Shown here in pieces: positions 15,481 through 17,339 of a stretch of 43,851 bases of DNA. The stretch is from a virus. Lineage: Duplodnaviria; Heunggongvirae; Uroviricota; Caudoviricetes. The DNA lies in the IMG/VR virus record IMGVR_UViG_2531839640_000007, one strand, 5' to 3'. Position 1 is the first letter of the stretch; every line of letters begins with the position of its first letter. Position numbers and translations under genes: made by a program. The notes beneath the pieces are model-generated. The model made no database searches. It saw nothing but the letters and a program-made list of their open reading frames with translations, and had not been told where the DNA came from.

Positions 15481-15504
15481 TACGCCAATTATTTACTAAA
15501 AGTT

Positions 15505-15643
15505 ATTAAAAATGGGGCGTTGAAACGCCCCCAAAAATAAAGGGTAATATATAACAGAAGGTTTGTATAGTTAGAAGCAAGGTTGTGCTTCTAAAGGAAG
15601 TGGCTTGAGGGAGCCACTTATATGTTGGGGAGGCAAAGCCTCC
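15505..15643. terminator. Cluster of four hairpins between Q and the convergent porin gene; GGGGCG-ttgaaa-CGCCCC (15514-15531) is followed by a U-run on the minus strand
   Basis: Inverted repeats at 15514-15531, 15573-15592, 15597-15618, 15627-15643; likely porin terminator and/or tR-prime. Confidence 0.5.
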
Positions 15644-15668
15644 CACAACATATCTTTTAGTAATCAAA

Positions 15669-16751
15669 TTAGAACTGGTAAACCATACCTACAGCAACGA
15701 TATCATCGGTAGCAACGCCAGATGCTTTCGTGAAATCGCTCTTATCAATCAGGTTGATTTTGTAGTCAACAAAAGTGGACATATTTTTGTTGAAGTAATA
15801 GGTTGCACCTACATCAACATATTCAACCAGGTCCTGATCACCCCAAACACCCAAGTCTTTTCCTTTAGAATGCAGGTAAGCAACGGATGGACGCAGGCCG
15901 AAGTCGAACTGATATTGTGCAACAGCTTCGAAGTTTTGTGCTTTGTTGGCAATATGGTTATTACCAAAAACAGTCATGTTCTGGGTTTCAGAATAGGTGG
16001 TGGCCAGATAGATGTTGTTCGCATCATATTTCAGACCAGCTGCCCATACTTCAGCATTTTGACCAGAAGCATTCAGACCGTTGTTACCGTAGATAACCTG
16101 ATTATTAGTGCGATCAGATTTAGCATAGGTTGCACCCACGCCGAATCCTTCATACTCATAAGTAGTTGAGAAACCGAAACCATCGCCATTAGCTTCAGTT
16201 ACTTCATTTCGGTCATTTTTGCCCTGATACTGAGCTGCAAAGTTCAGGCCATCAACCAGACCAAAGAAGTCGTTGTTACGATAAGTTGCAACACCTGTGG
16301 TGCGACCAGTCATGAATACATCTGTTTGGGTCCAGGTATCGCCACCGAATTCTGGCAGAACGTCAGTCCACGCACCGATGTCGTATGCTACACCGTAGTT
16401 ACGGCCGTAATCGATTGAGCCGTAGTCACCGAATTTCAGGCCTGCAAATGCAAGACGGGTTTTGTCTTTGGAGGAACCTTGAGATTCAGCGCGGTTGCCT
16501 TTGAATTCATATTCCCACTGACCGAAACCAGTCAGTTGATCGTTGATTTGGGTTTCACCTTTGAAGCCAAGACGGGCATAAGTAGTATCACCATCATCTG
16601 CATCATTAGAGGAGAAGTAGTGCTTAGCATTAACTTTCCCGTACAGATCCAGCTTGTTACTGTCTTTATTATAAATTTCAGCTGCCTGAGCAGACATCGC
16701 CATCAGTACTGATGCAGCTACAGCAGAAATTGCCACTGTTAATTTTTTCAT
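15669..16751 (-). CDS. nmpC: OmpC/OmpF/PhoE-family general porin, 360 aa with signal peptide; prophage-encoded (NmpC/Lc type)
   Basis: Signal peptide [23 protein letters not shown], beta-barrel porin hallmarks and C-terminal ...VYQF; located between Q and holin as in DLP12/PA-2. Confidence 0.9.
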
Positions 16752-17339
16752 CGTGAGCCCTTTTTTTTGAACTATTATTAAAAAATGATGTCACTGCGCG
16801 ATAAATATTCATCTAATCAATGTGATTATTTCAAGATGTAAGTTTTAGTTTCTCATTTAATTTGTGAAGTAGATCTCTATTTTTATCTGAACTTTTTCTA
16901 TCGAAACCTATTTATGGCTCTTATTTGAACAAAAATAAACCTATTAGCTAATTTATATTAATGGCTGTTATTTATGGGGGTTCTATAATTCGGCAGTTTA
17001 ATTTAAATCAACTAAAAATAACCTCTGAAATTATTTATTGGTTATTTGTTGAGGTTTTCTTATGTATTTGTGGTGGTGTTTTGAACACTCGGTAGCATTC
17101 TCATAAATATCATTCAGTGGTTTACGTACGTAAAAAATTGGTTATGCTGTTAAGAGTGGTTACTTCGTCACACAGCTTAAACCCGCCGTCGAGCTGGTTT
17201 TTCCATTTTTTGAGTCTCGATATTAGCTGATAACTTAATACCTGAGTTATTCACTGACTCCGAGTCTGTTACGTTTCTGCTTTTTTGCGATACGTTGTAT
17301 TCCCTCAATTTACACCCGCTTTGTCTGCGAGGTGGGGTT

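Follow-up and report, generated by a model that had tools for sequence, protein, structure and literature searches.

The prophage studied here very probably carries an intact nmpC/lc porin cassette between the late antiterminator gene Q and the late promoter pR', with the porin transcribed from its own promoter and late transcription starting separately, from 17121-17148. The window, by which we mean the whole 43,851-nucleotide stretch of DNA analysed, corresponds by DNA match to a lambda-like prophage of E. coli O104:H4/55989: a 2.6-kb query was 100% identical to O104:H4 genomes, its identity to strain 55989 was 99.9%, and among 5426 complete E. coli genomes, 2394 (~44%) contain 80% or more of this query. 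The locus is an intact, widespread form of the nmpC/lc cassette of DLP12-type lambdoid prophages, which has been studied since the 1980s and is already known, and the porin cassette in itself adds nothing new. What is useful here is a correction: homology places the late promoter after the porin and ahead of the lysis genes, and the palindrome that an earlier note on this DNA had placed in the porin control region is a late-promoter element.

Gene identities and orthology to DLP12 were established directly on this DNA. The Q gene (15097-15480, plus strand) encodes a quuD-type late antiterminator of 127 amino acids that belongs to the Q21 family; it matched the PF06530 profile (E 3.5e-53, 179 bits) and the Q21 structures 6P18/6JNX (E 7.6e-7), carries the RefSeq name QuuD, and shares 77-80% identity with Q of 933W-type Stx phages. 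The lysis cassette (17340-18486, plus strand) comprises an S21-type pinholin with a dual start (17340-17555; PF04971; RefSeq essD), a lysozyme with what reads as a SAR signal-anchor at its N-terminus (17555-18052; PF00959; RefSeq rrrD), and Rz (18049-18486; PF03245; RefSeq 'lysis protein'). The porin gene lies antisense between Q and this cassette, as the earlier note had described, and its likening of the locus to the nmpC/lc arrangement was borne out by orthology to quuD-nmpC-essD of K-12 DLP12. Gene order is the same in both elements (ylcG, quuD, antisense porin, essD, rrrD, Rz), as are the 3'UTR and the pR' module, and both porin-flanking intergenic regions are 94-95% identical between the two. 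However, K-12 DLP12 (qsr') is a cryptic remnant, whereas the present prophage is a full-length lambda-like element beside ybhC, and its S leader contains a 16-bp insertion relative to DLP12.

The porin gene (15669-16751, minus strand) is complete and intact, in agreement with the earlier reading. Its 360-amino-acid product, of the NmpC/Lc/OmpD type, matched Porin_1 (PF00267) over the full length of the profile (positions 1-337 of 337; E 3.6e-152, 507 bits), scored 515 bits against a cut-off of 484 for the NCBIfam 'porin OmpC' subfamily, and fell under the NCBIfam equivalog cut-offs for PhoE and OmpF. The translation reveals a signal peptide ending in AQA/AE, the loop-3 PEFGG motif (LPEFGGD), and a C-terminal Phe (VYQF), and sequence similarity to the solved porins OmpK37, OmpC, and PhoE reached E values of about 1e-135. 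In O104:H4 genomes, the gene is present at 100% DNA identity and is annotated 'porin OmpC'. The protein is a 360-aa variant, whereas K-12 NmpC is of the 365-aa type, and the open reading frame that is intact here is split by IS5 in K-12 MG1655. The porin shares 91% identity with the 346 N-terminal residues of K-12 NmpC, and the differences are bunched in two short stretches that we read as putative surface loops under diversifying selection rather than as decay.

The 590 bp upstream of the porin, treated in the earlier note as a single porin control region, proved to fall into three parts, namely the porin promoter with its 5'UTR, an AT-rich spacer of variable sequence, and the late promoter followed by its leader; for annotators, the 590 bp as a whole should no longer count as porin control DNA. 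The first of these parts (16752-16950, minus strand) is the orthologue of the K-12 region -199 to -1 and holds the promoter PnmpC with its regulator sites, and the DNA upstream of the porin is 95% identical to that of K-12. In K-12, the PnmpC start site is a G mapped by 5'RACE, deletion of -199 to -1 abolishes the promoter-dependent phenotype (IS5 transposition), and its regulators are the activator CRP and the repressors OmpR, IHF, and MprA (PMC11677980). For porin expression and its regulators, we draw on such literature on orthologues. Among 28 distinct alleles, the promoter-proximal 150 bp (16752-16901) are 94-100% conserved, and PnmpC would here consist of a -35 element TTGAAA and a -10 element GAATAT, with a start near 16797-16799. 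The AT-rich spacer (16902-17051) exhibits the lowest intergenic conservation in the same set of 28 alleles (83-95% per 30-bp window) and no evidence of constraint. This spacer contains the direct repeats once proposed as a control feature, TATGGCTCTTATTTG (16913-16927) and AATGGCTGTTATTTATG (16960-16976), which agree at 12 of 15 positions, or at 13 of 15 in the best register, and are not identical to the K-12 copy. The significance of repeats and palindrome was assessed with dinucleotide shuffles of the 588-bp region, and 97% of the shuffles held a pair of 15-mers agreeing at 12 positions or more, and 36% a pair agreeing at 13 or more. The repeats are at chance level and sited in the least conserved stretch, and they were dropped as a signal after the shuffling and conservation tests.

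On the other side of the porin gene, the 164 nt from its stop codon to the terminator (15505-15668, minus strand) form a 3'UTR homologous to ipeX, with ~97% identity to the DNA between quuD and nmpC in K-12. It contains three hairpins and closes, right next to the Q stop codon, with an intrinsic terminator made up of the hairpin 15514-15531 and the U-run behind it. Its predicted fold is strongly structured (MFE -64.7 kcal/mol, z = -10.3). The K-12 ipeX RNA is untranslated and ~167 nt long (size and origin in PMC12197685; also PMC3333887), and it is reported to repress OmpC and OmpF after transcription (PMC12197685, PMC3333887); the activity of the homologue is taken from this work on the orthologue. 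Rfam returned nothing in the region, either at gathering thresholds over the whole window or at E up to 1 over 15400-17400; it holds no ipeX family, and MicF had no match in 15400-17400 at E up to 1. This 3'UTR, the portion of the cassette to which published work attributes a lowering of OmpC, had been missed in the earlier note. In the fold of 15478-15680, a strong hairpin followed by CUUUU (15620-15658, plus strand) is a candidate terminator of the rightward Q transcript, and the same DNA forms a hairpin on the other strand too, within the porin 3'UTR.

The late promoter is assigned in this prophage by homology and motif conservation to 17121-17148 on the plus strand, with a -35 element TTTACG (17121-17126), a 14-bp dyad (17121-17134), and a -10 element TATGCT (17143-17148). 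Direct comparison established that this module has homologues and that it stands at a single place in the window. The annotated pR' of 06-3462 and of Ss-VASD, Stx phages of the 933W type, is homologous to 17120-17202 (77% over 82 bp), and the module comprising the -10 element, the invariant leader, and the hairpin occurs in one copy, at 17121-17211, between the porin gene and S. It is 98-100% conserved in the 28 alleles and is kept across very different phages, and the leader TAAGAGTGGTTACnTnGnCAC (17151-17171, plus strand), which would represent the qut/pause region and was used as the search pattern, is 100% conserved in the 28 porin-type alleles. The start of pR' and the Q dependence of the lysis cassette are taken from orthologues. 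In Sakai Sp5, dRNA-seq located the pR' start 258 nt before the Term-seq 3' end (PMC7547250), a mapping that places the start within TAAGAG, 5-7 nt past the -10 element, and predicts a start at 17153-17155 here. PMC7918800, citing Rueggeberg 2013, describes the DLP12 lysis operon as controlled by a Q-type antiterminator. The pR' element lies ~370 bp past the porin start codon and ~185 nt ahead of S; Q is not directly followed by pR', and the 1.64 kb from the Q stop codon (15480) to the -35 element at 17121 are filled by the porin cassette. Because pR' is placed between the porin and the lysis genes, late transcription need not cross the porin, and the locus has no built-in antisense conflict. 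The earlier note had instead supposed that late transcription starts near Q and runs antisense through the porin, a view that it would have given up for a late promoter downstream of the porin gene; such a promoter is what the homology to the mapped Stx start and the K-12 literature indicate.

The sole terminator-like structure between pR' and S is the leader hairpin with its U-run (17179-17211, plus strand). A T instead of a G at 17195 weakens its stem in this allele, with an energy of -5.4 kcal/mol compared with -11.6 in K-12 and -12.1 in the 933W type, and about 19 contigs of the porin type have the T17195 allele. The tR' mapped in Stx phages is found at +258 and is not the homologous first hairpin (PMC7547250), which is evidently passed by part of the transcripts. 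The leader sequence TAAGAGT resembles the pause element TAAGCTG that phage 21 has at +2, but it overlaps the predicted start, and no clear -10-like element was seen further downstream.

A late promoter directly after Q, in the manner of lambda, phage 21, and 933W, would send Q-modified polymerase antisense across the porin and set lytic growth and porin expression in transcriptional conflict. The textbook cassette does have pR' right behind Q (bioRxiv 10.1101/651190), and Q abuts pR' in 26 related contigs, but we give this arrangement almost no weight for the present prophage: 15481-15668 bears no resemblance to the pR' module, of which the leader and the dyad occur once each in the window, at 17121-17171; the interval is full of hairpins that are possible terminators on both strands; and the module adjacent to S is homologous to a promoter with a mapped start (PMC7547250). 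A consensus promoter scan also lacked a site in 15481-15668, but it detected neither pR' nor PnmpC, and we regard it as uninformative rather than negative because both promoters score 8/12 or lower. Early rightward transcripts could leak past Q into the porin in antisense; an N-like ORF, sought as a driver of such transcripts, was absent between the kil-like gene and cI, and Q contains no TTGYN6TTGY site that could belong to an antisense promoter of the paQ/CII type, which the phage 21 annotation shows. It also appears unlikely that the lysis cassette is expressed mainly from a sigma-E-type promoter near 16801, with the pR'-like module as a relic or a mere Q loading site. A predicted sigma-E-like promoter directed towards S does overlap the porin 5'UTR (16768-16801, plus strand), with tGAACTa, 16 nt, and TCACT; this motif stands at the right distance, and the start is predicted near 16801. 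Pasqua et al. (PMC7918800) cloned the DLP12 lysis-operon regulatory region as -121 to +650 and report RpoE control, citing Rueggeberg 2015; from the position of their forward primer, 16679-16698, +1 falls at about 16800-16801. Such a promoter, however, leaves the conservation of the pR' module in the 28 alleles and across very different phages to be explained, Q loading requires a sigma-70 promoter-proximal complex (bioRxiv 10.1101/651190), and the site is also on the S side of the porin, so that antisense read-through would not be rescued. An upstream sigma-E promoter may contribute to lysis-gene expression, and this can be compatible with a main late promoter at 17121-17148. We also consider it very unlikely that the porin gene is carried silently, like nmpC of K-12 MG1655, and plays no part in the lysogen. 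The MG1655 copy is indeed inactivated by IS5, and the title of Prilipov 1998 calls nmpC quiescent in E. coli B, but the open reading frame is intact here, the promoter, 5'UTR, and 3'UTR are 94-100% conserved, and the residues that differ from K-12 are grouped in two short segments. Moreover, intact NmpC makes up ~2% of the proteome in K-12 NCM3722 and rises under carbon limitation, and OmpC is >10-fold lower in that strain than in MG1655 (PMC8144880).

The palindrome reported earlier does exist, but its 12-mer TTACGTACGTAA lies at 17122-17133 rather than at 17127-17138, and in full it is a perfect 14-mer, TTTACGTACGTAAA, at 17121-17134. It is not part of a porin control region, as had been assumed, but extends over the pR' -35 hexamer into the -35/-10 spacer, of which it takes up the first half. 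A 14-bp palindrome arises in 6% of the dinucleotide shuffles of the 588-bp region, and its significance stems from the comparison with other phages, not from the single sequence. In 120 viral contigs, a dyad occupies this fixed position with a sequence that varies with the Q clade and the Q helix-turn-helix region (GCGTACGC is an example from another class), and it is found at the same position in phages without the porin, with other cargo, and with none, following the Q clade and not the cargo. Since the dyad co-varies with the Q helix-turn-helix at a fixed position, it is probably a Q-binding site, and TTTACGTACGTAAA becomes a candidate Q-binding element. An operator for a porin regulator or a dimeric phage repressor, outside the late promoter, would fit with perfect dyads being typical of dimer-bound operators and with the published Q21 binding element being a direct repeat, not a dyad (bioRxiv 10.1101/651190). 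We consider such an operator improbable, as 370 bp separate the palindrome from the porin start codon, the dyad tracks the Q clade in phages with different cargo or none, and it occupies the -35/spacer position held by the Q-binding elements of lambda and phage 21 (PMC6266700).

Beyond the candidate Q site itself, we tentatively propose, at somewhat less than an even chance, that in the QuuD/Q933W branch the Q site would be a dyad centred 15.5 bp upstream of the -10 element and bound by two Q protomers head to head, in contrast to the head-to-tail direct repeat solved for Q21, that at least six specificity classes of the dyad would have diversified with the helix-turn-helix, and that the stretch from Q to pR' would serve as an insulated slot for cargo. 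If true, a dyad-type site would imply a Q-loading geometry unlike that solved for Q21, and a sequence rule would predict which Q activates which late promoter, with a bearing on Stx expression differences between Q alleles. A limited literature search found no description of a palindromic Q-binding site, which is not proof of novelty.

Phage 21 shares with this locus the Q family (PF06530) and the pinholin/lysozyme cassette type, and its Q target, like the candidate element here, lies at or in the -35/-10 spacer, but its Q abuts pR', whereas 1.64 kb lie between them here, and its QBE is a direct repeat (ATTGAGCA / AATGAGCA), whereas a perfect dyad stands at the equivalent position here. The 933W-type Stx pR', whose start was mapped experimentally, shares the architecture of TTTACG, dyad, A-tract, TATnnT -10 element, leader TAAGAGTGGTTAC, and first hairpin, and is the source of StxS RNA. 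The Stx leader runs to a second terminator at +258 and yields the 74-nt StxS, which has no counterpart here: when StxS was sought in the leader, the first ~57 nt of the Stx leader were shared and the 74-nt StxS part was absent. The cargo of Stx phages (tRNAs, stx) lies downstream of pR' and is late-expressed, whereas the porin lies upstream with its own promoter. Lambda bor and lom and HK97 gp15 resemble the porin in being lysogen-expressed, with their own promoter and terminator, in or beside the late region (PMC10884400), but they are located inside the late operon, whereas no phage operon includes the slot described here, which is bounded by predicted convergent terminators and by pR'.

In the lysogen, the porin gene would be transcribed leftwards from its own sigma-70 promoter, and its transcript would end in the structured 164-nt ipeX-homologue 3'UTR. 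The porin would enter the outer membrane while ipeX would lower OmpC (and OmpF) after transcription, and the surface porin set would therefore be swapped; the cassette would also supply a porin induced under carbon limitation. Q, produced from the early rightward operon, would act in trans on pR' at 17121-17148, and RNA polymerase setting out from about 17153-17155 would meet the leader hairpin at 17179-17211 and, once Q-modified, proceed into S, R, and Rz. Over its last 250 residues, the tail-tip protein J shares 91% identity with J of lambda h434 and 53% with J of lambda, and phage 434 is said, from Hantke's work of 1978, to use OmpC. Because J is of the 434 host-range type and 434 adsorbs to OmpC, the porin swap would most likely exclude superinfecting phages of the prophage's own receptor class, as for PA-2. 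According to Schnaitman's work and Castillo-Keller 2006, PA-2 reportedly adsorbs to OmpC and expresses lc in lysogens while OmpC is shut down, and its lc is said to have an ipeX-like 3'UTR. Porin Lc of PA-2 ('protein 2') is reported as a phage porin in the Q-S interval, as here; in the present prophage, the 434-type J is the only OmpC link. Porin carriage is not strictly tied to a 434-type J: phage 1W has the porin and a J that is 57% identical.

Among 105 viral contigs and reference loci with the leader TAAGAGTGGTTACnTnGnCAC and an identifiable Q, 79 had cargo of 0.6-2.9 kb between Q and pR', and Q was adjacent to pR' in the other 26. This comparison of gene order suggests that the gap between Q and pR' may be a recurrent cargo slot, occupied by the porin here and by candidate defence genes elsewhere. 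The slot would carry the porin-ipeX cassette and at least 25 other gene sets, nearly always on the opposite strand, some of which match candidate anti-phage systems. A 'Q to pR' hotspot' was not described in the literature covered by our limited search, which does not prove novelty; both the co-variation of the dyad with Q and the cargo slot are by-products of this analysis that may be new. If true, the slot would let lysogen-expressed cargo be swapped without disturbing early or late transcription, and it would be a practical place to seek new defence or conversion genes in lambdoid prophages.

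The window is a lambda-like prophage, and the segment holding Q, the porin gene, and S (15000-17600, a 2.6-kb query) exhibited identities of 100% to numerous genomes of E. coli O104:H4 and 99.9% to E. coli strain 55989; of 5426 complete E. coli genomes, 2394 contain at least 80% of the query. The O104:H4 copy adjoins ybhC, has int and xis, and contains a recombination and immunity region of the lambda type, nin-type genes, and head and tail genes resembling those of lambda. ORF calls and Pfam agreed with the porin coordinates and gene identities of the earlier note, revealing ylcG (14871-15011; ORF call), the late antiterminator gene Q (15097-15480, plus strand; Phage_antitermQ, PF06530, Q21 family), a 360-aa porin (15669-16751, minus strand; full-length Porin_1, E 3.6e-152), S (17340-17555; P21 holin S family), a lysozyme gene (17555-18052; Phage_lysozyme), and Rz (18049-18486; Rz family). 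Upstream of these genes, rusA is intact (14512-14874, 120 codons, 363 nt), and a frameshift is annotated in its counterpart in O104:H4 strain 2011C-3493 (19514-19875, 362 nt); the window therefore derives from a different assembly, or the 2011C-3493 assembly is in error at this point. At the far end, a full-length match to Rfam IS009 (RF02111; 227 bits) was located on the plus strand at 43610-43808, inside an ORF starting at 43267. At 7033-7546, which separates the kil-like gene from the cI-type repressor gene and corresponds to the position of lambda N, no N-like ORF (on the minus strand, at least 50 aa) was found, and RefSeq annotates no gene in this interval either.

Judged by its sequence and surroundings, the porin locus is the already known nmpC locus. 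In the DLP12 prophage of K-12, the genes are arranged identically (ylcG, quuD, nmpC, essD, rrrD, rzpD), although nmpC there is split by IS5, whereas the ORF of the window is intact. Relative to K-12, identity reached 94% over the whole Q-porin intergenic alignment (about 97% outside the coding ends), 95% over the porin-S region, and 91% over the 346 N-terminal residues of NmpC, with nearly all protein differences confined to residues 181-235 and 263-268, which are probably surface loops. Related viral contigs carry one of two porin forms, of 360 aa (as in the window) or 365 aa (as in K-12). The protein passed the NCBIfam 'porin OmpC' subfamily cut-off and fell below the PhoE and OmpF equivalog cut-offs, and it matched enterobacterial porins of known structure (E about 1e-135).

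The earlier note had proposed that late transcription from a promoter near Q reads through the porin gene antisense to reach S, unless the late promoter maps downstream of that gene, and by homology that is where it maps. A sensitive search of phage genomes with 17100-17345 yielded full-length matches in porin-carrying phages, while 17120-17202 alone was matched in several hundred Stx phages (76-77% identity), at the very end of Q and under features annotated 'promoter'. In phages 06-3462 and Ss-VASD, the matched feature is annotated as putative late promoter pR', followed in 06-3462 by an annotated terminator. Alignment with the Stx phages, whose Q is 77-80% identical to that of the window, placed the putative -35 hexamer TTTACG at 17121-17126 and, after 16 bp, the -10 hexamer TATGCT at 17143-17148, followed by GT, the leader TAAGAGTGGTTAC, and a hairpin, AAACCCGCC-GTCGAG-CTGGTTTTT, at 17179-17211; the Stx phages have TTTACG, 17 bp, TATCAT, GA, TAAGAGTGGTTAC, and the hairpin AACCCGCC-GATGCG-CGGGTTTTTTT. 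In Sakai prophage Sp5, the distance from the pR' start site (dRNA-seq) to the 3' end (Term-seq) is 258 nt (PMC7547250). Measured backwards from the terminator U-run of Sakai, this start falls inside TAAGAG, 5-7 nt past TATCAT, which corresponds to a predicted start at 17153-17155 in the window. Across the 43.9-kb window, the leader motif and the palindrome discussed below are both present as single copies, and nothing similar to the pR' module was found in 15481-15668. The K-12 lysis operon is described as controlled by a Q-type antiterminator and RpoE (PMC7918800). The forward primer of the published '-121 to +650' reporter fragment maps to 16679-16698, so the published +1 would lie near 16800-16801, where we observed a sigma-E-like motif (tGAACTa, 16 nt, TCACT); we infer a sigma-E-type promoter near 16801. 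Because each of the two candidate promoters lies between the porin ORF and S, antisense read-through by late transcription is unsupported.

Between pR' and S, no terminator-like structure other than the leader hairpin is present, and the transcripts of Stx phages that end at +258 run past its homologue (PMC7547250). Position 17195, in the 3' arm of the leader hairpin, is T in the window and G in K-12 and most relatives; the change halves hairpin stability (-5.4 versus -11.6 kcal/mol) and might lead to leakier lysis-gene expression. The T allele was present in about 19 porin-type viral contigs among the matches listed. The sequence TAAGAGT resembles TAAGCTG, the pause element of phage 21, but overlaps the predicted start site. 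Further along the S leader, a 16-bp insertion relative to DLP12 (17276-17291, CTGCTTTTTTGCGATA) is carried by about half of 28 alleles, and together with its flanks it creates a CII-like TTGYN6TTGY match (17285-17298) at chance level.

The palindrome that the earlier note assigned to porin control DNA does exist, but it lies 5 nt away and is a perfect 14-mer (17121-17134) rather than a 12-mer, taking in the -35 hexamer of pR' and extending halfway into the spacer. The accompanying direct repeats carried no signal, being ordinary for AT-rich DNA, situated in the least conserved stretch, and different in K-12. A 14-bp palindrome alone is only marginally unusual (present in 6% of shuffles). Scanning IMG/VR for the leader motif returned at least 120 contigs, and all those listed displayed, before the leader, a -10-like hexamer, an A-tract, and a dyad at one fixed centre, 15.5 bp upstream of the -10 hexamer, or 0.5 bp off. 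At this centre, 4-5 of 5 flanking pairs were complementary in nearly every distinct sequence, compared with an average of 1.36 of 5 at all other centres. The dyads fell into six unrelated sequence classes, one containing TTTACGTACGTAAA, TTTACGATCGTAAA, and TTTACAATCGTAAA, and the others represented by GCGTACGC, GCGGTCCGC, TGTTATAACA, TGGAATTCCA, and ATTCGTTACGAAT. Dyad class tracked the clade of the upstream Q rather than the intervening cargo, in particular the helix-turn-helix-like segment of Q, which differs by class (e.g., GISLRTIAKKRKCSDGTIRKELQTA and ISKRKIAKxRxKDEKLIRIEIQxAEG).

The dyads have kept their symmetry while their sequence changed completely, which points to recognition by a dimer, and the one candidate for that role that co-varies is Q. 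Part of the correlation could arise because Q and its promoter are inherited together. Lambda-type promoters have Q-binding elements partly between -35 and -10 (PMC6266700), and in phage 21 the annotated element fills this spacer as a direct repeat, ATTGAGCA / AATGAGCA, where the window has the dyad. The dyad is thus probably a palindromic Q-binding element of this Q branch, unlike the published direct repeat of Q21.

Among contigs and reference loci in which Q could be identified, it abuts pR' in at least 26 (5-40 nt from stop codon to leader) and is separated from it by 0.6-2.9 kb in at least 79. The intervening DNA contains the porin gene in at least 34 of these separated loci; in the remainder, at least 25 further gene sets were found, nearly always encoded on the opposite strand. 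This interval spans 15481-17120 in the window, 326-2000, 1406-2000, and 645-2000 in loci L005, L006, and L007, respectively, and recurs in 70-odd IMG/VR loci; annotated genomes of SfII, PhiR55_1, and phiP27 share the layout. When ten cargo families were scanned, one proved to be a KAP-family P-loop NTPase matching PADLOC candidate PDC-S20, a two-gene set matched PDC-M53 A and B, and another family carried a nucleoid-associated NA37 domain; an alpha/beta-hydrolase-like protein was also present, and most families lacked annotation. The Q-to-pR' gap thus appears to behave as a cargo slot outside the early and late operons. We found no description of such a slot in the literature searched, which is weak evidence of novelty.

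Expression of the porin, which the earlier note had left to be checked, has in effect been examined in the K-12 orthologue: in strain NCM3722, where nmpC is intact, NmpC makes up about 2% of the proteome, 200-fold above an MG1655-derived strain, and is with OmpF the main porin under carbon limitation, while OmpC is more than 10-fold below the MG1655-derived level (PMC8144880). The K-12 nmpC start site is a G by 5'RACE, the promoter's effect is lost on deleting -199 to -1, and CRP activates through two sites, with OmpR, IHF, and MprA repressing (PMC11677980). The counterpart of this promoter region (16752-16901, 150 bp) was 94-100% conserved across 28 distinct alleles. The predicted porin promoter (minus strand, start near 16797-16799) and the putative sigma-E-type promoter (plus strand) stand back to back within 16768-16834, and polymerase occupancy should be mutually exclusive because the recognition elements of each lie inside the other's transcribed region. 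At the opposite end, the 164 nt from the porin stop codon to a U-run at about 15505 contain three strong hairpins and an intrinsic terminator (15514-15531), fold with an MFE of -64.7 kcal/mol (z = -10.3), and are the homologue of DLP12 ipeX; Rfam has no ipeX family, and its search of the region gave no match. ipeX is a 167-nt RNA that forms part of the porin transcript, from the porin promoter, and controls OmpC by a mechanism not resting on simple complementarity (PMC12197685); it is counted among the ompC repressors (PMC3333887). On the plus strand, a hairpin (15620-15653) followed by CUUUU could end the rightward Q transcript, so that, together with the porin terminator, the Q-porin gap looks like a convergent terminator pair.

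In the proposed mechanism, the cassette would be an autonomous, lysogen-expressed unit in which a CRP-dependent promoter drives the porin, the porin would replace OmpC in the outer membrane, and the ipeX 3'UTR would lower OmpC. The last 250 residues of J (window 38707-39456) share 91% identity with the lambda h434 J and only 53% with that of lambda, which suggests OmpC-type rather than LamB-type receptor specificity. Phage 434, as Hantke reportedly found in 1978, adsorbs to OmpC, and for PA-2 a porin swap removing the OmpC receptor, with exclusion, has been described. Given the 434-type J, this adsorption, and the PA-2 precedent, the swap would remove the receptor for phages of the prophage's own class, although the porin-J link is not universal, since phage 1W carries the porin and its J differs. 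With the porin locus as originally put already known, the probable Q-binding dyad and the apparent cargo slot between Q and pR' constitute modest leads.
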